A stretch of DNA of 64,000 nucleotides from Flavobacteriales bacterium (lineage in GTDB: Bacteria; Bacteroidota; Bacteroidia; Flavobacteriales_F; PHOS-HE28). The notes beneath the pieces were generated by a model. It ran no database searches, had not been told where the DNA came from, and saw only the letters and a program-made list of their open reading frames with translations. Numbering within the stretch: the stretch's first letter is position 1; each line of letters opens with the position of its first letter. The DNA is taken from contig JBGAJW010000001.1 of NCBI GenBank assembly GCA_044224725.1, positions 77,012 to 141,011 on the forward strand, in the 5' to 3' direction. Below, piece after piece: positions 1 through 35,109 of this stretch. The position numbers were made by a program, and so were the translations under genes.

Positions 1-39
1 AGGTCAGGACATTTTCTGATCATCTGATCGTCTGATCAT

Positions 40-1107
40 ATGGCCATCGATATCGACGCATCCAATTACGAGCACCGGGGCAGGAAGAGGATCGTGGCTC
101 GCAGGTACCGGTGCATAAATTTCCTTGTCATAGCGCTCGGATCGGCGCCGTGCTTCTCCACGCACGCTCATGGACAGGGCGAGGTGCGCAACGAGTTCAT
201 CGGCAGCTATTCATTGGAGATCGTTGATTCCCGCACCAACGACACCATCCATATGGAAGGCTGGAGCGATACAACGCAGGCCTTCCTGCGAATACGGGAG
301 AGGGGAAAAATCCAAGTGGTCTATTTCGGCGATCTCGAGCGCGACAGGGCCTTGCGCACGATGCGAGGTGACGCGCAACCTGAAATGTTGACTCCCGGCA
401 AGAAGGTGAGCATCGCCTCGGTTCCAGCGAGAACCGTTGCCTTGCCGGGCCGCCGCGAGCTGCTCGGTCATCGGTGCAAGGAATATCAGGTCGTTCGGCC
501 GGGGCAGGACACTGTGCACTACTGGGTCGCCGACTTCGGCGCTTCGCCTTTCCCGGACCTCTGGAAATGGACATCCAACAAATGGATGGGCGAATTGGGC
601 CACCTGCTCAAAGTGGACCGCCTTCGTGAAGGAGTTCCGCTGCTCATCAGCAACAAGGACCGAACGATCCGGGTGACCGCTTGCGTTGCAGGCCCGCAGC
701 CGCGGCCCCGCCTTTTCGAAGGAATGCGAGGCTCCGAACCATCACCACCGTCGCGCATCGATCCTATGCGTTCAGTAGCGGCCACACCTCCGGACTCCGT
801 GCCCGCTTGGATCACACTTCAAAGCCGGGTGCCTCACCTCCCCTTGCTCTATCATCCCGTCAAGCCCCCTCATGTCCCTGCATCCGGCGAGGCAGCCTTC
901 ATGTGCACCGTGTTGTACACCGGACAGATCGTGGCCTACGATGCGATACCCCTTGATGCGGATGGTCACTGGATGACGGATGCTCACACCATCACCCCGC
1001 TGGAAGAGCTCGCCTTGGGACTACTGCAGGACTTCCGTTTTGGAACCCTGTCTGACGGCAAGGAAGCCATGGTGGTCATCCGCTTCCGCTTCAATGCGTC
1101 ACCGTAG
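40..1107 (+). CDS. Hypothetical, probably secreted protein. It has an N-terminal hydrophobic segment and a proline-rich low-complexity central region.
   Basis: Long ORF co-directional with and 40 bp upstream of the pccB-like gene. No recognisable conserved motif, so function unknown. Confidence 0.4.
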   Translation: MAIDIDASNYEHRGRKRIVARRYRCINFLVIALGSAPCFSTHAHGQGEVRNEFIGSYSLEIVDSRTNDTIHMEGWSDTTQAFLRIRERGKIQVVYFGDLERDRALRTMRGDAQPEMLTPGKKVSIASVPARTVALPGRRELLGHRCKEYQVVRPGQDTVHYWVADFGASPFPDLWKWTSNKWMGELGHLLKVDRLREGVPLLISNKDRTIRVTACVAGPQPRPRLFEGMRGSEPSPPSRIDPMRSVAATPPDSVPAWITLQSRVPHLPLLYHPVKPPHVPASGEAAFMCTVLYTGQIVAYDAIPLDADGHWMTDAHTITPLEELALGLLQDFRFGTLSDGKEAMVVIRFRFNASP

Positions 1108-1149
1108 CACTTGAAAGTACGTATCCAACCTTCGTTGCAGCATATCCCC

Positions 1150-2790
1150 ATGGCAGAGAAGATCGACATCGAAGCATCCAAGAACGAGGACTTCAACAAG
1201 CTGAAGCTCTCCGACCTCAACAAGCGATTAAGCAGGATCCACGAAGGCGGCGGCGAGAAACGCATCGCCAAGCAGCACGAGCAAGGGAAATTGACCGCGC
1301 GCGAGCGCATCGACGCCCTGCTCGACCCCAAGAGCCCGCGCATCGAGATCGGCGCCTTCGCGGCCGACGGCATGTACAAGGAGCACGGCGGTGCGCCTTG
1401 CGCCGGTGTGGTGGTGGTGATCGGCTACGTGAGCAAGCGCCAGTGCATCGTGGTGGCCAACGACGCCACCGTGAAGGCCGGCGCCTGGTTCCCCATGACG
1501 GGCAAGAAGAACCTGCGCGCGCAGGAGATCGCCATCGAGAACCGCCTGCCCATCATCTACCTGGTGGACAGCGCCGGCGTGTACCTGCCGATGCAGGACG
1601 AGATCTTCCCCGACAAGGAGCACTTCGGAAGGATCTTCCGCAACAACGCCATCATGAGCTCCATGGGCATCACGCAGATCGCCGCCGTAATGGGCAGCTG
1701 CGTAGCCGGCGGCGCCTACCTGCCCATCATGAGCGATGAGGCCCTCATCGTGGAGAAGACCGGCAGCATCTTCCTCGCGGGCAGCTACCTGGTAAAGGCC
1801 GCCATCGGCGAGGACATCGACAACGAGACCCTCGGCGGCGCCACCACGCACAGCGAGATCAGCGGGGTGACCGACTACAAGTGCAAGGACGATGCGGACT
1901 GCCTGAAGAAAATCCGCGCCATCGTGGACAAGCTCGGCAAGCCCAAGGATGCGGGCTTCAGCCGCGAGAAACCCGCCGCGCCCAAGAGCGAGCCGAAGGA
2001 CCTCTACGGCATCATCCCCAGCGAGCGCGCCAAGCCCTACGACATGCGCGAGGTGATCGCGCGACTGGTGGACGGCAGCGAGTACACCGAATACAAGGAA
2101 GGCTTCGGCCAGAGCATCCTCACGGGCTACGCGCGCATCGACGGCTGGGCCGTGGGCATCGTAGCCAACCAGCGCAAGGTTGTGAAGAGCAAACGCGGTG
2201 AAATGCAGTTCGGCGGCGTCATCTACAGCGACAGCGCCGACAAGGCCACGCGCTTCATCGCCAACTGCAACCAGAAGAACATCCCGCTGGTCTTCCTGCA
2301 GGACGTCACCGGCTTCATGGTGGGCAGCCGCAGCGAGCACGGCGGCATCATCAAGGACGGCGCGAAACTGGTGAACGCCGTGAGCAACAGCGTGGTGCCC
2401 AAGTTCACCGTGATCGTGGGCAACAGCTACGGCGCCGGCAACTACGCCATGTGCGGCAAGGCCTACGACCCGCGCCTCATCGTGGGCTGGCCCAGCGCGC
2501 AGGTGGCCGTCATGGGCGGCGACCAGGCCGCGAAAGTGCTGTTGCAGATCGAAGTGGCCGCGCTGAAAGGCCGCGGCGAGGAGATCACCAAGGAGCGCGA
2601 AGAAGAGATCCTCGGCAAGATCCGCCGCAAGTACGAGGAGAGCATGAGCCCCTATTACGCGGCGGCACGGCTGTGGCTGGATGCGATCATTGATCCGTTA
2701 GAGACGCGGACGTGGATCTCGATGGGAATTGAGGCTGCGTCGCAAAGTCCGGCTACACACGAGTTCAATATGGGAGTGCTACAGACTTGA
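1150..2790 (+). CDS. pccB: Acyl-CoA carboxylase carboxyltransferase subunit (propionyl-CoA carboxylase beta / methylmalonyl-CoA decarboxylase alpha family). Start moved to M14 of the track ORF.
   Basis: Full-length carboxyl_trans fold signature with a glycine-rich region (GGA..AGV, GSCVAGGAY, GGVIYSDSADKA). Typical length of about 545 aa. The C-terminus is atypical (see findings). Confidence 0.9.
   Translation: MAEKIDIEASKNEDFNKLKLSDLNKRLSRIHEGGGEKRIAKQHEQGKLTARERIDALLDPKSPRIEIGAFAADGMYKEHGGAPCAGVVVVIGYVSKRQCIVVANDATVKAGAWFPMTGKKNLRAQEIAIENRLPIIYLVDSAGVYLPMQDEIFPDKEHFGRIFRNNAIMSSMGITQIAAVMGSCVAGGAYLPIMSDEALIVEKTGSIFLAGSYLVKAAIGEDIDNETLGGATTHSEISGVTDYKCKDDADCLKKIRAIVDKLGKPKDAGFSREKPAAPKSEPKDLYGIIPSERAKPYDMREVIARLVDGSEYTEYKEGFGQSILTGYARIDGWAVGIVANQRKVVKSKRGEMQFGGVIYSDSADKATRFIANCNQKNIPLVFLQDVTGFMVGSRSEHGGIIKDGAKLVNAVSNSVVPKFTVIVGNSYGAGNYAMCGKAYDPRLIVGWPSAQVAVMGGDQAAKVLLQIEVAALKGRGEEITKEREEEILGKIRRKYEESMSPYYAAARLWLDAIIDPLETRTWISMGIEAASQSPATHEFNMGVLQT
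2725..2790 (+). repeat. Repeat copy A: 3' terminus of pccB (GIEAASQ...GAGTTCAATATGGG..CAGACTTGA).
   Basis: A sequence of about 65 bp that recurs in diverged form at 3061-3124 and 3829-3904. Confidence 0.8.
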
Positions 2791-2794
2791 AGCC

Positions 2795-3058
2795 ATGAAC
2801 CGGGTCTATGCGGAGTCGCACTATACAACCGAGTTCTTCAACGACACGAAGGACGGTTGCGCTGGGTTGAAGCTGTTCAAGCAATATGTGCACAAGGATT
2901 TCATCGCTCTTGCAGGCGATGAAGTGAAGCACATAGCAACGGTGACGTATTGGGACGCCGTAGGCGACTTCACCGTTGAGACCCACGGCACCGATCTCAG
3001 CGCGACGATCTTACAAGAGCTGATCAATGAAGCGAAAGAACGCATCCGAACCAAATGA
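2795..3058 (+). CDS. Small hypothetical protein (87 aa) in a low-GC cargo cassette.
   Basis: ORF begins at MNRVY, 5 bp after the pccB stop. GC is about 52% against about 65% in the flanks. It is bracketed by repeat copies A and B. No motif recognised. Confidence 0.45.
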   Translation: MNRVYAESHYTTEFFNDTKDGCAGLKLFKQYVHKDFIALAGDEVKHIATVTYWDAVGDFTVETHGTDLSATILQELINEAKERIRTK

Positions 3059-3060
3059 AG

Positions 3061-3124
3061 GGCATCGAAGCGGCGAGCCAGGCAAGCAACGAGGGAGTTC
3101 AATATGGGTGTACTCCAGACTTGA
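3061..3124 (+). repeat. Repeat copy B: diverged duplicate of the pccB 3' terminus (encodes GIEAASQ, then frameshifted; GAGTTCAATATGGGTGTACTCCAGACTTGA).
   Basis: Direct alignment with 2725-2790, including the core GAGTTCAATATGGG, CAGACTTGA and the following (A/GA)GCCAT. Confidence 0.8.
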
Positions 3125-3142
3125 GAGCCATCACCATCTCAA

Positions 3143-3826
3143 ATGAGAGGCACTATCGCCATACTCACCGTCGCCATCCTTTTCGGCTGTGGCCGGGCGA
3201 ACAGCGCACAACCGAAAGTGCGTGACTTCTCACCTAGCGAGCAAGCGGCCATGGACATCGCGCAGATCGATACGGGTGTTGCGGCCGTGCTTCGCACTCA
3301 CGTCCCGGAACCCTTTTACCTGCACACACCAGAAGCGGACGATATCAATGCACGTAGTGGTTTCGCCGTGGCGAGGCATCCGTTTCGCGGTGTTGCCTTT
3401 AAGGTCCATCCCGATTCCACCATGGCACGCATCGAGTCCATAACCAAGCGCATCCGGCCAGAAGGCTATGCGATCTACCGCTCACGCATGGGCTTCGGCG
3501 GTGAACCGGATGAAGTATGCGTGCTGATGACCCAGCAACTGGACATGGTCATCTTGCGCTACGAACAAACGGATGGCATCAACTACGACATCACCACAGA
3601 CAGCCTGATCCAAGTACTTGAAGCCTGGGATCTGAAATTGACGGTCATCGGTGCTTCGAGCGATTGGATGGAAGCGAGCATTGATACCCCCGTGAGCGAT
3701 TGGAACGTGCTCGCGAGACAGGTCTACGCATTCTGCCCTGATGTGGTGGGTCAAGGAACGGGAACCGTTGAAGCATTGGCCGAGGAAATGCGCCGGACCA
3801 ATACTCTCTACTTGTGGTGGGACTGA
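3143..3826 (+). CDS. Lipoprotein of unknown function. Possibly DUF4253-like; it ends in YLWWD. Second cargo cassette.
   Basis: Signal peptide with a lipobox (ILFGC). GC about 56%. Bracketed by repeat copies B and C. The DUF4253 assignment is from memory of the family and is not verified. Confidence 0.5.
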   Translation: MRGTIAILTVAILFGCGRANSAQPKVRDFSPSEQAAMDIAQIDTGVAAVLRTHVPEPFYLHTPEADDINARSGFAVARHPFRGVAFKVHPDSTMARIESITKRIRPEGYAIYRSRMGFGGEPDEVCVLMTQQLDMVILRYEQTDGINYDITTDSLIQVLEAWDLKLTVIGASSDWMEASIDTPVSDWNVLARQVYAFCPDVVGQGTGTVEALAEEMRRTNTLYLWWD

Positions 3827-3828
3827 TC

Positions 3829-3904
3829 AAAGCGGCCAGCCATCCCCTGGTCAAATGCCCGGGGTCGGTGACGCGGGAGTTCAATATGGGGGTCTTCGAC
3901 GTAG
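3829..3904 (+). repeat. Repeat copy C: third, more diverged copy (AAAGCGGCCAGCCA ... GGGAGTTCAATATGGGGGTCTTCGAC).
   Basis: Shares the 14-mer GAGTTCAATATGGG and the upstream GCGGC(G/C)AGCCA block with copies A and B. It abuts the 3' end of the RAYT pseudogene. Confidence 0.65.
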
Positions 3905-4148
3905 GTCATCCCCTATTGAACCTATCCCCATTCCAATTCAACGGGTTGTCCTGGATGTATTTAGCGATGCGATCGTGTTCGCCATCGTCACGGATCACCC
4001 GGTCCCAATAATTGCGTTGCCATACGGGCGTGCCGTGCGGCACCAACCCATCGCGGTACGCCATGCGCGTAACCGCGGATTTGTACGACGCCACGATCTG
4101 CCCCAACGCACCACGCGGGATGCCCGGCGGTTTTGCGGTATCCCGTAG

Positions 4149-4168
4149 GGGCGCGTCATGACGCGCCC
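4149..4168. repeat. Perfect 20-bp palindrome GGGCGCGTCATGACGCGCCC (REP-like), copy 1, inside the RAYT pseudogene.
   Basis: Self-complementary. An identical copy lies 163 bp away at 4312-4331. Both encode ARHDAP in the respective RAYT fragments. Confidence 0.85.
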
Positions 4169-4311
4169 GCGTGTGTGGGCCGGGTGTGTCGGCCAACGAA
4201 CGGGATGGACCGCCGGGCATTTCGATACCGGAATCATCGGGTGTGGCGTCGGGGACGTTGTCGGCCAATCCATGCGCGTCCACCGCACCAATGCCGGGCG
4301 CGTTCGTTTCC

Positions 4312-4331
4312 GGGCGCGTCATGACGCGCCC
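4312..4331. repeat. Perfect 20-bp palindrome GGGCGCGTCATGACGCGCCC, copy 2.
   Basis: Identical to 4149-4168. Confidence 0.85.
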
Positions 4332-4819
4332 CTACCGCACGCACATCCGGCCCACCGCGCATCAACCGTTCCCGTATGATCACGATACCATGCACATGGT
4401 TGGGCATCACCACGAATTCCCCGACATCCACATGCGCCATGTGTTCCGGTATCGCGTCCCAACACCGTCGCACCAATTCACCGATGGGTGATGGATGCAT
4501 GATGCCATTCGCAATGTTCCCGAACCAATGTCGGCGACCATCGGTGCAGATGGTCAGGTAATACGCGCCGACGGTGACGTAATCGTAACCCGGTCGGCGA
4601 ATGGTGTGGCGTTGCGGCAGGTCGGCCATGGCAACCCGAATATCGCCTCAACGATCGAACCGGCCCATATTCCGGTCTGCTGCTCGCGCGAAACGCGACA
4701 TTGCGAATGATCGGTCATGGAAGGTTGGATCCGGAACTGGTAGTACAGTTGGCGCCGCAACGGTCGCGTTGCCAATTCGCCGGTCACCCCGGCCACGTGA
4801 CGCGGTTTGCCTGATGCCC

Positions 4820-6352
4820 TCACTCCTTCACGAACCGCCACCGCAGCCCACCCGCCTGCAGGATGTAGCTGCCCGCCGTTAGTCCGGCTACATCGATGCT
4901 GTTGTGGTCCTGCGTGGTGAGGAGCGTGCGGCCGTTGAGGTCCATGACCGTAACGACGGCACCGGCCTGCAGCCCGTTGGGCAAGTACAGCCTGTCCGTG
5001 GCCGGCACGGGGTACAGGAGCCCGCGCGGTGCTTCCGCCTCGGCCATGGCGGTGGACAATGGCGTCAGCTTCGCCACGAAGCCATCACCGGCCTGGCCGG
5101 TCAGCTGGGCGCGTCCGGCGAGATAGAGCGCCCCATCGTTCCCCATGACCATGGCGTTCACCTTGCTGCTTTGTGCCCCGGGCACGTTCCACGGCTGCCG
5201 GAAGAGCCGGGTGCCGGTGGTGTCATACTCGTAGAGATAGGATCCGATGTAGGCCGAGGCGATGGTCCAGCGATCGTCGTGCAGGAGCGCGTGGTCCATG
5301 TTGAGGCAGTAGTTGACGTTGCCACCGGTGAGCGTATCGGTCCAGAGCACGTTGCCAGCGCTGCTCAATTTGGCCGCGAGCAGATACGGTCCGGGGATGG
5401 ACGCTTGGTAAGGCCCCTCGCCGATCGCGTACACATCGCCCTGCGCATCGCAGCGGACATGACGAACACGACCGCTCGCACTGCTCAATCCGGGAAACCC
5501 GAAGTCGGTGCTCCAGAGGATCCCGCCTGCTGCGTCGAGCTTCGTCACATTGAACTGCTGGTTGCGTCCGCCACCGACCAGTACGTGCCCCAGCCCATCG
5601 GTGGTCATCGCGTTGTTGTTGTCCGTGCTGGTCACTTCAAGGTCCGTGGTCCAGAGGTGTACACCCGCCGACGAGTAACCGACCGCGGCGGAATAAGAAG
5701 TGCCGTTGCGTGTCCACATGACCACCACCGAATCGCCGATGGCCTCCACCGCCAGACCAATGCCGAAGCCGTTCCAGTTGGTGGGCAGCGGATGGGTGAC
5801 CCACCACGCCAGATCACCCGAAGCCGTGAGCCTGGCCAGCCCCGGCCTGGTGAGTCCATTGGCGGAGAAGGTACCGGTGAGGTAGACCTCGCCATCGGCA
5901 TCCATCGTTGCATCGCCGAAGTCATCGCCGGTGTTGGTACCTGCGGAGTTCAGCACGATCTCACCGGTCTGGGTCCCGCTCGCCGTGAAGCGCTGCACGA
6001 GCACATCGTTGGTGCCGGTCTGGTTCTCGTAATCGCCCAGCGCGAGCACGGAGCCGTCGTTCAGTTCGAAGATCTTCCACGCGCGTCCGATGCTGTCCGG
6101 TAGGCCATTGGTCCAGAGCGGTGCTCCCGTTCCATCGAAAGCCGTGACGAAGAACTCCGTGGTGGTGGTGGGCACGAACACACCGCTCGTGACCAGATCC
6201 CCGCTCGGCAGGAGCACCAGGTCCTCCGCGCTGTGGTAGCCCGTGAGCCCGTCGAAAAGGCTGATCCACTCCGTGTTGTATTGGGCGTGTCCATCGGCAG
6301 CCGCAACCAAGAGGACACCTGTAAGCAGGAAGGGTAGCGATCCGTTCTTCAT
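4820..6352 (-). CDS. T9SS-sorted secreted beta-propeller repeat protein (SBBP / delta-60-like repeats) with a type-A T9SS C-terminal sorting domain.
   Basis: Signal peptide. Repeated DG(S/D)..L(A/V)G motifs. C-terminal roughly 80 aa typical of the Por secretion CTD (LYPVPATDRLYL...GSYILQ). Confidence 0.8.
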   Translation of the reverse strand: MKNGSLPFLLTGVLLVAAADGHAQYNTEWISLFDGLTGYHSAEDLVLLPSGDLVTSGVFVPTTTTEFFVTAFDGTGAPLWTNGLPDSIGRAWKIFELNDGSVLALGDYENQTGTNDVLVQRFTASGTQTGEIVLNSAGTNTGDDFGDATMDADGEVYLTGTFSANGLTRPGLARLTASGDLAWWVTHPLPTNWNGFGIGLAVEAIGDSVVVMWTRNGTSYSAAVGYSSAGVHLWTTDLEVTSTDNNNAMTTDGLGHVLVGGGRNQQFNVTKLDAAGGILWSTDFGFPGLSSASGRVRHVRCDAQGDVYAIGEGPYQASIPGPYLLAAKLSSAGNVLWTDTLTGGNVNYCLNMDHALLHDDRWTIASAYIGSYLYEYDTTGTRLFRQPWNVPGAQSSKVNAMVMGNDGALYLAGRAQLTGQAGDGFVAKLTPLSTAMAEAEAPRGLLYPVPATDRLYLPNGLQAGAVVTVMDLNGRTLLTTQDHNSIDVAGLTAGSYILQAGGLRWRFVKE

Positions 6353-6498
6353 GATGTGGTCCATTAGCCAGCGTATCCAAGTTTACGACGGATCGTTCGT
6401 CAACCACATGCTGCACACCCACCAGGAAGGATGCATGCACAGCGGACCTGCTGGCCGTACACCGACCAACGGAACGCACGGTCGGTTAGCTTTAGACC

Positions 6499-7296
6499 AT
6501 GGCTACGGTCCTTCCCGCCAACCGTCATCCGCTGTTGTGGATGCTGTTCGTGCTGCCTTCTTCACTCCATGCCCAGGCGTACAACTACCCGAACGGTTCC
6601 ACGGTAGCGGACTTCACGGTGACCGATATCGAGGGCGACGTACACGACCTGTATGACCTGACCGCGCAGGGCAAGTACGTTCTCCTGGACTTCTTCACGC
6701 TGTGGTGCGTACCATGCCAGGAAACCGCGCCTTATTGGGCAGAACTCTACCAGACCTACGGTTGCAACGGTGCCGATATGGTCTGTCTTTCACTGGACTA
6801 TGAGAACAACACGGCGGCCGAGGTCCAAGCGTATTCCGATACCTATTGCGGACCATGGGCGCATCCGCCCGTGGTTTCCGATGCCCTGGCTTTGTCGGAT
6901 GTGTTCGGCGTGGGCACCGCGCCCAACTACTGCCTCATCGGGCCGGACAATGTGATGATCAACAACTTCATCTGGCCCGTTGCCTCCATGGCCGACTTCG
7001 TTGCGGCATTTCCGGTTGGCAGCGCGGTGACCCCGCAGGCCTGCGCCGTTGGCGTGGAGGAACGAGCGCAGGAAGCGCTGATCGCCTCTCCCAACCCCAC
7101 GACGGGAACCATCCGTATCAATGGCCCGAACGTCGCAAGCGTACATGCTTGCGACGCGATGGGCCGATACCTGACCACACGACCAATCATTGCCAACCAG
7201 CTGGACCTGCGAGGCAATGCACCGGGGTTGTATCTGCTGGAGCTCTTCAATGCGCGGGGCGCGGGCATGGGCAGGTTGCGTGTGGTCCTGGAGTAG
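6499..7296 (+). CDS. Thioredoxin-like (TlpA/AhpC-TSA family) thiol-disulfide oxidoreductase with a T9SS C-terminal sorting domain.
   Basis: Signal peptide, a WCVPC (CxxC) motif, and a C-terminal SPNPTTG...GLYLLEL T9SS CTD. Confidence 0.8.
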   Translation: MATVLPANRHPLLWMLFVLPSSLHAQAYNYPNGSTVADFTVTDIEGDVHDLYDLTAQGKYVLLDFFTLWCVPCQETAPYWAELYQTYGCNGADMVCLSLDYENNTAAEVQAYSDTYCGPWAHPPVVSDALALSDVFGVGTAPNYCLIGPDNVMINNFIWPVASMADFVAAFPVGSAVTPQACAVGVEERAQEALIASPNPTTGTIRINGPNVASVHACDAMGRYLTTRPIIANQLDLRGNAPGLYLLELFNARGAGMGRLRVVLE

Positions 7297-7471
7297 ATGG
7301 TTAGCCAGCACAGGCGATGCCGTAGTTCCACGCGGGTCGTGCAAGCTTGAGCGTCGGACGGCCTGCAGCGGCTGCATCCAATTACTCACTCATCATTCCG
7401 TGGTCGGCGTTCGATCCTCGCGGCCGCACGGATCGCTCCTTCCTGACCGCAAGGCCAGCGCTACGCTGCGC

Positions 7472-9262
7472 TCACTCCAACTTCCGCGACGGCGTGGTGC
7501 GGTCGATCATGAGCACCGCATCGAACTGCGTGGCCAGCACGGTGGGTTGCTCGAAGCCGAAGTCGAAGGCGCTGTAGCCGATGGAGCGCACAGGGCGCGG
7601 GTCGTGGATCCATGTGCTTGTGGTATCCGCTGCCAGTGCGCGCACGTCCAGCAGGAGCGCTGACGCGTGTGTGGGTAGTGCGCGGTGCATGGCCTCTTCC
7701 AAGCTGCCCAAGGGCGCGGGGAAGCAGCGGGCGTCCATCGGTCGGTGGTCCGCGAAACCGCGTGTGGCGCGGTAGCTTCCATCGTAGGTGCCAATGCCCA
7801 CCACACGCAACCGGTCGCCGAAGAGGCGCAGCATGTGGGCGCCCATGCTGGTGCCGCTGGCGAAGCCCGTGCGCCCGATGTGCCCATCATGTGCCCACAC
7901 GGCCATGCGCGTGCCTTCGGGCTGTTGCGCGAGCGTCCAGGCGATGTTGGCGGCCATGCAGCTGTCGCGGATCGAGGGGTTCCACGGATCATGGGCCTGC
8001 GCGGCGCACTGCACCACCACGCGCGCGTTCTGCAAAGCCCAACGGCGTTCCAACGCATTGTCCGGAGGCGTATCCAGCATGCGTTGCGCGATGAGTTCCT
8101 GCGCGCGCTCCGCGTTGGCCTGCCATAGCGCTCCCTCTCCTTCCGCCGGTCGTGGATAGTCGCCCTTGCGCCATGCTTCGCGATGCGGGGCGAGCAGTTC
8201 GCGCACCTGATCGGCGATGGCCGCGTCATGGCGGCGCAGGTAGGCCACCACGCTGTCCATGGGCTGTTGCGGATCCTGCATGTCGAAGCCCACGAACGAG
8301 AGCGGCTGCTTCGGTGCGCGCGCGTTGTAGGCGCGCATCCACTCGATCAGGTCCTTCACCTCCTGCTTGTACCACACCCCGAAGAGGCCGCCCATGGCTT
8401 TCTCCACCGTATCCGTCGCCCCGTTCACATACGCGTTGATGCGTTCCGTGGACAGCTGGTTGGCTTCGATGGCGAACACGGTGAAGCCTTTGCGTTCCAC
8501 CAGGTAGCGGAACAAGTGATGCTTGGCCACGAAGAACTCGTGTGTGCCGTGCGTGCTTTCACCCAAGGAGACCACCTGCGCCGGGCCAACGATGCGGTCG
8601 AACGCTTCATACCCCGCGGGCCATGGGCTGTCCAACGTTGTCGGAAGCTCCAGCACATCGATGGATGCGGCGTGTGCGCGCAAGGCCTCCAGGTCGGCGA
8701 TGGTCGGCGCGGTGCCGCACGGCAGTTCGGTGATCGGTCCTCCATCGGCCGTCAAGGTGAAGGCATCGAACCACACCGGGCCGCTGCTCAGGGCTTTCAC
8801 GGTGATCACGAGCTGGTAGTCGTTCGCATCGATGGGCAGCGCTAGTTCCGCCGACCGCCAGGTGGATGGATCCGTTCGGAGAAAGACCACGCTGTCCACC
8901 TGGCCAGGCTCACCCCAGGTATTGAGGTATACGCAGGCATCAGCCCCAGCGGAGTGGACCGTGAGCGCCACCCGCTTCCCTTGCAGCGATGCCGCAGGCA
9001 GCCGCATCATCATCGCGTGTGCAGGAGGCACCGTGCTGCTGTCCGCCGGTGGGAGGTCGAGCCGGAAACTGTACCGGCCTTCCATCACCGTGGTGCTGTC
9101 CAGGGTGCTGGTGCCCGCGTTCCACATCCAATGCGCTTCCCAACCCCACGGGCGATCGGTGCCGGTTACACCGGGCATCTCGAAGCCCAGGTTCAGCGGT
9201 TGCTGGGCAAGGCCTTGGAGCGCAAGCGCACCGGCAATGAGATAGGTCAATGATCGACGCAT
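7472..9262 (-). CDS. Erythromycin esterase family protein (EreA/EreB-like), secreted, with an extra N-terminal domain.
   Basis: Pattern LGESTHGTHEF...GFTVFAIEAN...YVNG...EWMRAYNA...FVGFDMQD matches the Ere family core. Start moved to MRRSLTY, which is followed by a signal peptide. Confidence 0.75.
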   Translation of the reverse strand: MRRSLTYLIAGALALQGLAQQPLNLGFEMPGVTGTDRPWGWEAHWMWNAGTSTLDSTTVMEGRYSFRLDLPPADSSTVPPAHAMMMRLPAASLQGKRVALTVHSAGADACVYLNTWGEPGQVDSVVFLRTDPSTWRSAELALPIDANDYQLVITVKALSSGPVWFDAFTLTADGGPITELPCGTAPTIADLEALRAHAASIDVLELPTTLDSPWPAGYEAFDRIVGPAQVVSLGESTHGTHEFFVAKHHLFRYLVERKGFTVFAIEANQLSTERINAYVNGATDTVEKAMGGLFGVWYKQEVKDLIEWMRAYNARAPKQPLSFVGFDMQDPQQPMDSVVAYLRRHDAAIADQVRELLAPHREAWRKGDYPRPAEGEGALWQANAERAQELIAQRMLDTPPDNALERRWALQNARVVVQCAAQAHDPWNPSIRDSCMAANIAWTLAQQPEGTRMAVWAHDGHIGRTGFASGTSMGAHMLRLFGDRLRVVGIGTYDGSYRATRGFADHRPMDARCFPAPLGSLEEAMHRALPTHASALLLDVRALAADTTSTWIHDPRPVRSIGYSAFDFGFEQPTVLATQFDAVLMIDRTTPSRKLE

Positions 9263-32707: not shown

Positions 32708-33457
32708 TCACCGCCGGAAGAGCTGGCCCAACTTCCGCATGGGCTTGGCCACGATGATCAAGGGGCTCACCCGCTCACCGTTCAGCTTCCACGCCTTGTA
32801 CACTTCCAGGTTCGCACGCCAGATGTGCACGAGCGATCGGTTGCTCACCCCCCCGAGCCTGAAACGTACGAGCACCTTCGGCACGTAGCGGACGCGGATC
32901 CGGTGCTTGTACATGAAGCGGAACATGAGCTCGTAGTCCGCGCTCACCTTCAGGTCCTCGCGGAAGTGGCCGAAGCGATCATAGATGTCCTTGCGTATGT
33001 AGGTACCCAAATGCGGGGGCATCCAGCCTGAACGGAAATTCTCGCGGTCATAGATCCCTCCTTTCCAGAAGCGCTTGACCTTTTTGATGTCGTCCGGGTC
33101 CACCATATAGGCGTCCCCATAGATCGCGTCCGCATCGCCTTTTTCGAACTCGGCCGCCATTTCGGACACGCAGCTGCGGTGCACGATCATATCGCCCGCG
33201 TTCACGAAGGCGATCACTTCACCCGTCGCCGCGCGCAGGCCCTTGTTCATCGCGTCGTACACGCCCTTGTCCTTCTCGCTGGTGAAATGCGCGATCACTT
33301 CACGGTAGCGCTCGATACGTTGCTGCGTGCCGTCGGTGCTCCCGCCGTCGATCACGATGTGCTCGATGTCCTTGTGGTCCTGCATCACCACGCTGCGCAT
33401 CGTCTCGTCGATGTGCTCGGCGGCGTTGTAGCAGATGGTGATGACGGAGACCTTCAC
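32708..33457 (-). CDS. Family 2 glycosyltransferase.
   Basis: GT2 motifs (VITICYN, DGGSTDGT, AFVNAGD). Confidence 0.85.
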   Translation of the reverse strand: MKVSVITICYNAAEHIDETMRSVVMQDHKDIEHIVIDGGSTDGTQQRIERYREVIAHFTSEKDKGVYDAMNKGLRAATGEVIAFVNAGDMIVHRSCVSEMAAEFEKGDADAIYGDAYMVDPDDIKKVKRFWKGGIYDRENFRSGWMPPHLGTYIRKDIYDRFGHFREDLKVSADYELMFRFMYKHRIRVRYVPKVLVRFRLGGVSNRSLVHIWRANLEVYKAWKLNGERVSPLIIVAKPMRKLGQLFRR

Positions 33458-34083
33458 GACGGATCGATCACACGCTCGCGCACGGGCACGGCTGGATTGC
33501 CCTGGTAGATCATGTACGGCTCCAGATCCTTGGTGGCCACGCTGCCGGCGGAAAGCACACTGTGGCTTCGGAGCGTCACACCGAGCATCACCATGGCTCC
33601 CGCTCCTACCCAGCTACCATTCTCCAGAACCACGGGGCCGCTCATCGTGGGGTAATCCACCTTCTTGTAGTTGTGGCTGCCCTGGATGATCATGCCGCCT
33701 TGGGAGATCACCACGTTGTTGCCGAGCGTGAGCTGATCGATGTTGATGATCATGCCGCCTTGGGAGATCACCACGTTGTTGCCGAGCGTGAGCTGATCGA
33801 TGTTGTCCAACCAAGCACGCTGGCCGATCCAGCAGTGATCGCCGATGGTCAGCTTCCAAGGATACTTGATGTTGACGCCGGGATGGATCACGACCCCCTT
33901 CCCCACACGCGCGCCGAACATCCGCAACAGGCCCGGCTTCACGCTACGGAAAGGAAAGCAGGGATTCAGGAAGAACAGTGCATTGGTGAAATACCACAGA
34001 GTCATCTTCAGCGCGCCGGCCCCTTTCGGGAAATCAGCGTTACTGAAGCGGGAGAGATCCACGCGCTGGCGTTCTGCGCTCAT
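33454..34083 (-). CDS. Hexapeptide-repeat (left-handed beta-helix) acetyltransferase, WcaF/colanic-acid-acetyltransferase-like. Contains an internal perfect 60-bp tandem duplication.
   Basis: Hexapeptide repeats (IGDHCWIGQRAWL, LGNNVVISQGGMI repeated twice exactly). Its stop overlaps the GT2 start (ATGA). Confidence 0.85.
   Translation of the reverse strand: MSAERQRVDLSRFSNADFPKGAGALKMTLWYFTNALFFLNPCFPFRSVKPGLLRMFGARVGKGVVIHPGVNIKYPWKLTIGDHCWIGQRAWLDNIDQLTLGNNVVISQGGMIINIDQLTLGNNVVISQGGMIIQGSHNYKKVDYPTMSGPVVLENGSWVGAGAMVMLGVTLRSHSVLSAGSVATKDLEPYMIYQGNPAVPVRERVIDPS
33688..33807. repeat. Perfect 60-bp direct tandem duplication (2 x GATCATGCCGCCTTGGGAGATCACCACGTTGTTGCCGAGCGTGAGCTGATCGATGTTGAT) inside the acetyltransferase CDS.
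   Basis: Identical 60-mers are adjacent. They encode DNIDQLTLGNNVVISQGGMII twice. Confidence 0.85.
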
Positions 34084-35109
34084 CGGGTGAACAGTGCGAG
34101 GCTTCGTTCCACGGTGGCTGGATCGCCCAAATATCGCTTGCCCATGGCGAACGCCCCTTTGCTCCAACGATCGTACTCGGCCTGCTCGGCGCGTACCAAC
34201 CGCTCAATGGCGCGCACGAACAGGTTTCCCCCGTTCAACGGCAGGTCCCACCCGGCATGCTTCTCTTCCAGCCCTTTCCAAGGCGTTCGATCGCTGATCA
34301 ACAGCGGCAACCCGCTGGCAAGCGCCTCGGCCATCGTATGCCCGAAATTCTCGCCTTGGCTTGGCATGAAGAGCGCGTGGTATCCCGCAAAGAGCGCGGG
34401 CACCTTTTCCGGGTCGATCACACCCTTGTAGTTGACCTTGACGTTGGAAGGAAGAGCGGCGATGGCTTGTTCGCAGCGTTGCCAATACGCATTGTCATAG
34501 ATCGGCCCGTACAGGTCGAAGGTGATGTCACCGGCGAGGCGGTTCAACCGTTCGATCGCGAAGAGCGTGTTCTTCTCCACGGCGATGCGGGCCACGCTGA
34601 CCAGTCGCAGTTCACCGGGTTTCTTCTCTCGACGGGGCGGTTCCGATGCGCTCAGCTTGCGTCCGAGATTCGGGACTTCCACCGCGCTTCTTCAGGGCAC
34701 CATGCTTCATCATACCGCTCGCAAGCATACCGCGAACGGCGACGATCCGCTTCTGCTTCGAGCCGCGCAGCAACCACAGCGGAAGGATGCTGAACGCCCA
34801 CGCATAGATGCCGTTGATGTAGACCGCATCCCAGTCGCGCTCCTTCAACAAGCGCCTCCAGACATCCGCGTTGGCGGCACGCTGTGATGCATACCACACA
34901 CGCTCACCACCGGATAACGTGGTCCATGTGTCGGGTGTGATGCCTTCATAGGGCTTCGATTCGGTGTAGTCCGTAACCGAAGTGACGATGTGGAAGTCGA
35001 TGCGGTCGCGGAGATGATCGACCATGTTCACCAAGCTCCGCACCGGGCCGCCCGCTTTGAACCCGGGCGAGTACCAGCCTATGAAAACGAGCAAACGAGG
35101 CTTACGCAC
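34080..35109 (-). pseudogene. GT4-family glycosyltransferase split into two overlapping ORFs (N-terminal half 34612-35109, C-terminal half 34080-34682). This is a frameshift or a sequencing error.
   Basis: N-terminal ORF has the GT4 N-domain (LLVFIGWYSPGFKAGGPVRSL). C-terminal ORF has the glycos_transf_1 core (LRLVSVARIAVEKN...MPSQGENFGHTMAEALASGLPLLISD). They are in different frames. Confidence 0.6.

Follow-up and report, generated by a model that had tools for sequence, protein, structure and literature searches.

What process leaves copies of the end of one gene lined up behind that gene, each of them preceded by a small cargo gene? The question is raised by a locus in a 64,000-nucleotide stretch of DNA from a Flavobacteriales bacterium (contig JBGAJW010000001.1; the whole stretch is called the window here), in which a pccB-like gene is followed by two further copies of its own 3' end, two small open reading frames (ORFs) and a gene for a transposase of the REP-associated tyrosine type (RAYT; REP, repetitive extragenic palindrome). 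The original prediction, made from the sequence alone, took this array for serial site-specific integration into an attachment site at the 3' end of a housekeeping gene. We keep the serial insertions and give them another cause. Sequential displacement by recombination through pccB homology is the best explanation of the data and, in our judgement, a reasonably probable one, and the arrays look like the product of ordinary recombination, not of a new kind of mobile element.

The repeat itself was examined first in the window. The 14-mer GAGTTCAATATGGG occurs there at exactly three sites, all on the + strand, with no further match in the 64 kb when up to two mismatches were allowed, and none of 100 shuffled sequences reached three matches. 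The three copies (c1, the functional gene end or tail, and c2 and c3) form one repeat family, with identities of 100, 90 and 63% over the last 30 nt, and a profile of the last 140 nt of pccB matched c2 at 3059-3123 and c3 at 3863-3896 (E-values in Table 1). The 14-mer search, the repeat grouping and the profile search thus confirm the three diverged copies of the pccB terminus that had been described, and copies 2 and 3 are decaying fragments, or stubs, of the pccB 3' end. Stub c2 keeps its stop codon and lies out of frame, its linker being 2 nt shorter than that of copy 1; as protein it reads GIEAASQASNE, then a frame shift, then EFNMGVLQT and stop, while c3 reads LIKAASHPLVKCPGSVTREFNMGVFDV. 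A REP family, which should be a dispersed, palindromic, RAYT-associated repeat, was considered and rejected: the tail repeat is not palindromic, the 14-mer and a 30-mer are confined to the pccB locus, and the repeat has no other copy in the window.

It had also been claimed that the pccB C-terminus is atypical and that the native 3' end was therefore replaced. The premise is wrong. A protein ending of the form ...W(I/V)S(M/L)GIEAAxxxPxxxxFN(M/L)GV(L/I)Q(V/T) before the stop is found in about 70 of 80 Flavobacteriales pccB loci, so the window ending is of the native type, and it aligns, as far as the alignments extend, with the ...APIExxxFGVFRM end region of solved methylcrotonyl-CoA carboxylase (MCCase) beta subunits. 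The replacement nevertheless holds, on composition instead of peptide. The GC content at third codon positions (GC3) of pccB falls from 0.93 in codons 1-496 to 0.66 in the last 50 codons. With this drop of 0.28, pccB is the sole outlier in a set of 22 long high-GC3 ORFs from the window, whose mean drop is 0.02 ± 0.08. Because its last 50 codons are compositionally foreign in an otherwise intact gene, the pccB 3' end appears to have been replaced and restored. The cargo genes have a GC3 of 0.65-0.68, like the last 50 pccB codons, and tail copy 1 probably arrived together with the first of them, ORF87. Tails of this low-GC3 type also occur at three other loci (L001, L108 and L111). Overall GC is 0.52-0.585 over positions 2700-4000 and 0.62-0.70 in the flanks, and the two small low-GC ORFs (87 aa, and a 227-aa lipoprotein) are as first described.

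In order to place the window among its relatives, pccB loci were collected by a genome scan and a pattern scan of metagenome contigs. They come from a high-GC Flavobacteriales clade, mostly uncultured, whose pccB genes are 82-97% identical to that of the window. Stubs occur in 18 of 34 non-redundant loci of this clade (the window and 17 others), with one to five per locus and 31 in total, a count that takes in three from the detached array L127 described below. In each of these 18 loci a full-length gene is followed by its own 3' fragments, every one with its own downstream gene. The cargo between stubs differs in nearly every contig. In L001 and L029, where pccB is 95% and 92% identical to the window gene, wholly different genes lie between pccB and the same RAYT, and in L094 the site is empty, only 4 nt separating the stops of pccB and RAYT. 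The alignment to related loci proposed in the original prediction has thus yielded both empty site and different cargo, and a conserved, syntenic pccB operon, which would have spoken against it, was not seen. Together with the foreign GC3 of the current tail, these relatives with different cargo or none bear out the prediction in so far as it has insertions occurring one after another at the pccB 3' end, each bringing a new end with it.

Comparisons between individual loci show how such insertions proceed. L111 equals L120 with one unit added, a divergent tail plus ORF333, a gene absent from L120. The second tail of L111 and the 239 nt downstream of it are identical, from alignment column 250, to the only tail of L120 and its downstream sequence, whereas about 20 differences, located to either side of the 14-mer, separate the first tail of L111 from the L120 tail. 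Hence the new tail and the new gene came together and the old tail was retained; the crossover lay about 90 nt upstream of the 14-mer and not at it.

A second comparison concerns c2 of the window. In L128 (GCA_035912095.1) the DUF4253 gene that forms the second cargo of the window sits directly behind the functional pccB tail, and its tail-DUF4253 spacer GAGCCAACATCATCTCAA matches the window spacer between c2 and DUF4253, GAGCCATCACCATCTCAA (common spacer GAGCCAnCAnCATCTCAA). The right part of c2, the 18-nt spacer and the DUF4253 start are orthologous to the L128 functional tail, spacer and DUF4253, which identifies window c2 as a former functional pccB end. L131 holds an ORF87 that is 90% identical and has the same ORF87-stub junction (CCAAATGAnGGGCATCGAAGC), followed by other cargo, one gene of which is the first cargo of L102. 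In a three-way alignment the window tracks L131 up to 'GTAC' and L128 from 'TCCAGACTTGAG' on; the crossover indicated by this switch lies 6-9 nt 3' of the 14-mer. A third crossover can be placed with the ParE toxin-antitoxin (TA) cassette of L002 and L120. Both copies have the same stub left edge and an 'IEAT' signature and differ in their right halves, so the crossover falls between 'IEAT' and the 14-mer core, that is between -45 and 0.

The junctions at the far end of the cargo tell a similar story. The DUF4253-stub junction TGGTGGGAyTGATCrArGC is common to the window, L128 and L121, whereas the DUF4253 homologue of L125, at a methylmalonyl-CoA mutase locus, ends TGGTGGGATTAA, TAA, without a stub. 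This suggests that the junction was made once at the short sequence GGGAT and was then inherited or moved as a unit; it is the one joint that can be compared with an un-joined allele, and about 5 nt (GGGAT) are shared there. A stub variant with the same 2-nt deletion is identical in the window and L128, behind different cargo. A new 3' end and a new gene arriving jointly, with the old end kept, are thus seen in L111 against L120 and in L128 against the window, and in the matching GC3 of tail and cargo. Collectively these comparisons show that stubs are former or foreign pccB ends, that cargo varies between strains and crossovers vary in position, and that junctions are inherited as units.

The same comparisons bear on a local, vertical origin, in which replication slippage would have created tandem duplications of the pccB end among resident genes of a conserved operon. 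At least 10 metagenome samples contain the three-copy array of the window in unchanged form, so the array is fixed in its species, and such stability is what speaks for a vertical process. The different genes at this site in L001 and L029, the foreign GC3 of the cargo and of the current tail, and the separate occurrence of the two cargo genes in L128 and L131, in other combinations, speak against it, and we regard this origin as extremely unlikely.

The anatomy of the 31 stubs gives further detail. Their left edges are scattered over profile positions 1 to 97, leaving 36-240 nt of pccB, whereas on the right 26 of the 31 extend to the stop codon and the remaining five break off at profile positions 126-131. 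Cargo ORFs are nearly always on the pccB strand and start 0-20 nt past the tail stop, often with an ATGA overlap; they end at the next stub or a few nt inside it. In the window the ORF87 stop touches c2, an 18-nt spacer separates c2 from the start of the DUF4253 gene, the stop of that gene touches c3, and the RAYT stop, on the opposite strand, lies 1 nt past the vestigial stop of c3. The stubs nearest to the RAYT in the window, L116 (c2), L100 (c2), L102 (c2) and L113 (c3) have a common decayed ...TTCGACG... in place of ...TTGCAGACG..., and in the window, L116 and L100 they run directly into the RAYT 3' end. This common decayed ending makes the RAYT-side stub look like an old, shared relic of a tail that once abutted the RAYT.

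Based on these data we propose a model of sequential displacement. The hot spot would lie between two convergent genes, a highly conserved pccB and a fast-evolving RAYT, and promoterless cargo on the pccB strand would be gained as segments made of a pccB 3' end plus cargo. The left side of such a segment would recombine through pccB homology and its right side would be joined within the resident pccB tail. The first cargo-stub junction would be an illegitimate join at a short microhomology, and later joins could arise by homologous recombination between tails, either by double crossover with a linear tail-cargo-tail molecule or by single crossover with an excised circle. The incoming tail would leave pccB intact, and the old tail, trimmed on its left, would move one place downstream with all that lies behind it. 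Read in this way, c3 would be the ancestral tail of the window that once abutted the RAYT, c2 would have come with the DUF4253 gene and c1 with ORF87. The tail pair of a tail-cargo-stub unit could further serve as portable homology arms for transfer to any tail-bearing strain, for loss and for shuffling, which fits the mosaic tails and the fact that the window and L128 have an identical 2-nt-deleted stub variant behind cargo that differs. The parts of the model that we infer are its reliance on RecA-type recombination, the way in which the DNA enters, the transcription of the cargo together with pccB from the pccB promoter, and the lack of a dedicated enzyme.

The one-sidedness of the arrays follows from this setting. 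Between lineages pccB is 82-92% identical in nucleotides, whereas RAYT is 37-73% identical in amino acids, and the ancestral stops nearly touch, as in L094. With the two stops 4 nt apart, an insertion that spares both genes should have almost no room outside the pccB tail, and would therefore usually leave a stub. Because crossovers vary and the extents of the stubs are not fixed, homology-driven recombination is favoured over a site-specific enzyme.

We then consider what was found of such an enzyme or of a carrier. Using Pfam, precomputed neighbour Pfam assignments and a crude motif scan, no integrase or recombinase was found in the window, where the RAYT is the only transposase-like gene, and none in about 34 loci or in the 31 stub-flanked segments; the Pfam scan for recombinases took in 30 ORFs of 143-529 aa beyond 8 kb and the array neighbours, with ORFs above about 530 aa beyond 8 kb and ORFs below 120 aa lying outside it. 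No transfer RNA (tRNA) or transfer-messenger RNA (tmRNA) gene is present in the window, and no Rfam family was matched in positions 1-9000. Two pattern scans of viral contigs and BLAST searches of phage and plasmid collections gave no viral, phage or plasmid copy of the tail; they returned only an ordinary carboxyltransferase gene, and a phage or plasmid vector was accordingly rejected. An attC-like or otherwise structured site was also rejected, as the single-stranded folding of the tails does not exceed that of shuffled sequences (z -0.52 and +0.15); the repeats are pieces of the pccB coding end and collinear with it, and no inverse core was seen on reading them. The 14-mer and recombinase search suggested in the original prediction therefore ended with three sites in the window and no recombinase in window or arrays. 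With left edges from 1 to 97, crossovers at about -90 and at +6 to +9 from the 14-mer, no fixed repeat extent and no common core, the site-specific attachment-site mechanism did not find support.

A related possibility is that the arrays are decayed integrative islands, each stub being the attR of an integrase-bearing element at the pccB 3' end from which deletions have removed the integrase and most cargo. A regenerated 3' end with a partial direct repeat downstream is the classical signature of such islands, and larger defence-type islands do occur at some loci, as in L115, where genes of 344, 1018 and 413 aa lie behind pccB. The missing integrases, the small size of the segments (0.3-1.3 kb, each holding one or two ORFs that lie tight against the repeats), a repeat length that is not fixed and a tail pattern absent from viruses and plasmids make this reading very unlikely.

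Several observations weigh against sequential displacement or are not predicted by it. The uptake of DNA by these bacteria is an assumption, illegitimate joins that duplicate a part of the anchor are not the usual product of homology-facilitated illegitimate recombination, and the mapped crossovers, found at different positions, number three. The 14-mer is unchanged in 26 of 29 functional tails of the first survey, including an AAT codon in a gene with a GC3 of 0.93. The last 45 nt or so of the stubs are far better kept than their left parts, and better than neutral decay should have left them if the stubs are old. By a two-type (A/B) classification of tail halves, intended to locate crossovers statistically, a single GC-rich type prevails among the left halves of stubs (19 of 29) more than among functional tails (14 of 34; Fisher p 0.08). 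The trend is no more than suggestive, and the ungapped scoring mislabels indel variants. The GC-rich left halves occur even in contigs whose functional tail is of the AT3-rich type. Simple displacement does not predict a single left-half type, which hints that stubs travel with their cargo or are under constraint. Finally, a RAYT, an HUH nuclease, stands beside pccB in every locus of the high-GC clade with enough flank.

The same features are those that would favour an integron-like, site-specific system, in which the right part of the tail (about GAGTTCAATATGGG) acts as the attachment site, cassettes of tail-right, cargo and tail-left are excised and inserted there, and the recombinase acts in trans or is the adjacent RAYT HUH enzyme. 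The almost unchanged 14-mer, the conserved right parts and uniform left halves of the stubs, the crossover 6-9 nt from the core and the RAYT flanking all arrays of the clade agree with it. So do the cargo ORFs, packed on one strand between repeats of 36-240 nt and apparently without promoters of their own, and the cargo families that recur in different orders. On the other hand, neither the window nor any array yielded a tyrosine or serine recombinase, one crossover lies about 90 nt upstream of the core (L111/L120) and another between 'IEAT' and the core (TA cassette), stub left edges are not fixed, some cargo ORFs extend into the stub, the tails have no structure beyond shuffles, and no phage or plasmid carrier was found. 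Stubs also occur with no RAYT nearby, in L002 and in Maribacter L024. We consider this system unlikely. A narrower version, an integrase-free platform in which the right half of the stub (about 45 nt, CCGGCGACGCGG-GAGTTCAATATGGG-GGTGTTGCAGACnTGA) is recognised and nicked by the RAYT or by a trans-acting enzyme, is in our estimate slightly less likely; if true, it would be a functional analogue of integrons on the 3' end of a housekeeping gene. A dedicated recombinase is thus, taken overall, an unlikely cause, and sequential displacement remains the reading that we prefer.

Parts of the pccB array in the window (positions are those of the window)
Feature	Position	Strand	Remarks
pccB-like gene, 546 aa, conserved anchor of the array	1150..2790	+	Pfam Carboxyl_trans E 8e-150
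Tail copy 1 (c1), functional pccB 3' end, last ~49 codons	2644..2790	+	low GC3
14-mer core GAGTTCAATATGGG (codons E-F-N-M-G), copy 1	2761..2774	+	
Cargo 1, ORF87, 87 aa, begins 4 nt past pccB stop	2795..3058	+	no Pfam/NCBIfam match
Stub c2, 66 nt, ~last 22 codons of a former pccB 3' end	3059..3124	+	nhmmer E 3e-10, profile positions 73-139
14-mer core in stub c2	3095..3108	+	
Cargo 2, 227-aa predicted lipoprotein, DUF4253 domain	3143..3826	+	Pfam DUF4253 E 2e-21
Stub c3, oldest pccB 3'-end remnant, expanded linker, decayed end (GTCTTCGACGTAGG)	3826..3905	+	nhmmer E 0.0017
14-mer core in stub c3	3877..3890	+	
RAYT-like HUH/Tyr transposase gene, distal flank, frameshifted	3906..4629	-	weak NCBIfam REP_Tyr_transpos matches, below cutoff
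Perfect 25-nt inverted-repeat pair within RAYT ORF, outside the cassette array	4145..4335		each with palindrome GGGCGCGTCATGACGCGCCC

The anchor gene is of the type of acyl-CoA carboxylase carboxyltransferase beta subunits (AccD1/MCCase-beta), its best solved relatives being AccD1 and MCCase beta (E 1e-163 to 1e-155). As regards the cargo, the original prediction called both genes uncharacterised and suggested that they might form an immunity/toxin-like or surface-modification pair. ORF87 has no Pfam or NCBIfam family; the 227-aa protein carries a lipobox (LFGC) and a Pfam DUF4253 domain. Four homologues of ORF87 were found among 5.8 billion proteins, all at pccB arrays where the context is readable. 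The DUF4253 protein has 45 homologues, which sit in the pccB arrays L121 and L128, in the detached array L127 and after methylmalonyl-CoA mutase in L125. Its AlphaFold2 (AF2) model has a pLDDT of 90.3 and no informative structural neighbour in the PDB, and a literature search on DUF4253 found nothing functional. The idea of a pair is not supported. ORF87 has other partners in L131 and DUF4253 occurs without ORF87 in L128, L121 and L125, so that the two genes are separate acquisitions and not a toxin/immunity pair. At the second locus of this family (L125/L126, 4980-5700) the DUF4253 homologue, 64% identical, begins in an ATGA that also holds the stop of the methylmalonyl-CoA mutase gene (1080 aa), and no mutase stub follows it; here the same cargo family adjoins the 3' end of a second housekeeping gene.

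Elsewhere in the clade the cargo includes the ParE toxin-antitoxin pair, SMI1/KNR4, DUF2971, an Rce1-like protease, DUF4468, a nucleotide cyclase, a peptidyl-prolyl isomerase (PPIase), proteins sorted by the type IX secretion system (T9SS), TonB_C, OmpA and many small secreted or membrane proteins without a family. Recurring families, in varied order, are ORF87, DUF4253, TonB_C, ORF74 and the ParE pair. The only cargo with a plausible DNA-cutting function is a T5orf172/MUG113 nuclease-like gene with a 'homing endonuclease associated repeat', located between pccB and RAYT in L029 (1465-2235, minus strand). From spacing and strand, the cargo would be expressed by read-through from pccB. Terminator-like sites were not found in 2400-5000; the terminator and promoter scans gave no information, the promoter model being unsuited to Bacteroidota.

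The RAYT flank has features of its own. The intact 240-aa RAYT of L089 has HVH and QRNYWDR motifs. The window is otherwise 99.86% identical to L089 and has an extra C at 4310 that splits the 240-aa ORF into two frames, in agreement with the degraded RAYT noted at the distal end of the array; the frameshift is either a real pseudogene or an assembly error. The palindromes GGGCGCGTCATGACGCGCCC are perfect 25-nt inverted repeats at 4145-4169 and 4311-4335, flanked by the HUH motif (MPNHVHGIV) on one side and by the Tyr motif (QRNYWDRVIR) on the other; each copy is in frame and translates as ARHDAP. Since both copies have ADHDRP instead in L116, they co-vary. The linker is highly variable in length between loci, with RAYTs of 201 to 279 aa. 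Across the array boundary, at 3879-3921, the core of stub c3 and the RAYT 3' end form an imperfect inverted repeat, GTTCAATATGGGG / CCCCTATTGAAC, which pairs the pccB codons E-F-N with the RAYT codons R-F-N. The corresponding hairpin fold is marginal (z -1.75), and the equivalent junction at the empty site of L094 is not significant.

Some further arrays and repeats may be mentioned here. An independent case was found in a low-GC genus, in Maribacter sp. L024 (7535-9540), where an inserted minus-strand gene of 579 aa, which has 35% identity to the next gene, is followed by a 100-nt stub with only a couple of differences from the functional tail. L127 (8684-12517, on the same contig as L123) is an array of at least four pccB stubs and a DUF4253 cassette with no pccB within 10 kb upstream; it follows a 707-aa tetratricopeptide repeat (TPR)-cyclase gene and a long run of small same-strand genes, and is either an array detached from its anchor or one separated from it by a large inserted block. 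L121 (2640-4039) has five to six tails, and its pccB is called as two pieces (373 and 113 aa), which suggests a frameshift or an assembly error in the anchor gene; at its distal end two RAYT copies stand in tandem (7575-8395). An interspersed repeat (...GGGCGTGCCCCCTCGCAAAGCCTCGGGGTCCGGCC...) starts at or beside the stop of pccB or of the last stub, mostly TAG in these copies, in L029 (1352-1440), L098, L101, L105, L106, L108, L110, L115, L118 and L120. It is missing from the window and folds no better than shuffles, and an assignment as REP was rejected. Unconnected with the array, a perfect 60-nt tandem duplication (33685-33804) lies in a hexapeptide-repeat transferase ORF of the window (33454-34167, minus strand).

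Several known systems resemble the pccB arrays. Integron arrays and clusters of attC sites lacking an integrase (CALINs) share with them short promoterless same-strand ORFs, repeats that are 36-240 nt long at pccB, similar cargo (toxin-antitoxin, SMI1/KNR4 and small secreted or unknown proteins), entry at the promoter-proximal end and reordered cassettes. In contrast to integrons, the pccB arrays have no IntI, their repeats are coding pieces without R''/R' cores or a fold, and their crossovers are not fixed. Islands at the 3' ends of tRNA, tmRNA or protein genes likewise regenerate the 3' end, leave a partial direct repeat downstream and build repeat arrays by serial insertion, but such islands encode a tyrosine or serine recombinase themselves and cross over at a fixed core. 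Neither is seen at pccB, where the units are one or two genes. Minimal mobile elements of Neisseria and replacement-type flexible genomic islets carry different cassettes at one site that are exchanged without an enzyme, by transformation and homologous recombination. These are replacements between two conserved flanks without duplicated gene ends, whereas the pccB arrays are one-sided and additive.

If this reading is right, additive, ordered cassette arrays can form without an integrase, and need only a very conserved gene beside a permissive site, with the stubs as a readable record of the order of acquisition. The clade offers dozens of natural variants, from empty and single to five- or six-fold occupied sites, that could be used to measure the homologous and illegitimate recombination which builds flexible genome islets in uncultured Bacteroidota. 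For annotation, the arrays explain puzzling short 'carboxyltransferase' pseudogene fragments and mark the intervening genes as recent accessory acquisitions whose expression probably starts from the pccB promoter.

The closest resemblance is to the displacement arrays of rhs C-terminal tips, contact-dependent growth inhibition (CDI) as well as the Vibrio type VI secretion system (T6SS) effector-immunity modules, for which homology-facilitated illegitimate recombination has been proposed (PMC5361080). In the rhs orphan tips, the CDI orphan cdiA-CT/cdiI modules and the Vibrio cholerae T6SS arrays, as at pccB, a full-length gene is followed by its own 3' fragments, each fragment is still attached to the gene formerly downstream of it, and horizontally arriving modules displace the earlier ones. 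The proposed mechanism is alike as well: the conserved side would recombine by homology, the other side would be closed by an illegitimate or short-homology join, and no integrase would take part. The pccB anchor, however, is a housekeeping enzyme with a constant C-terminal peptide (...EFNMGVLQT), without toxin tips or immunity logic; its cargo is heterogeneous, unrelated in function to the anchor and among itself, and the distal flank is a RAYT. The pccB arrays thus work like the rhs/CDI/T6SS family without being members of it: a process of known kind on an unusual anchor, well sampled in nature.

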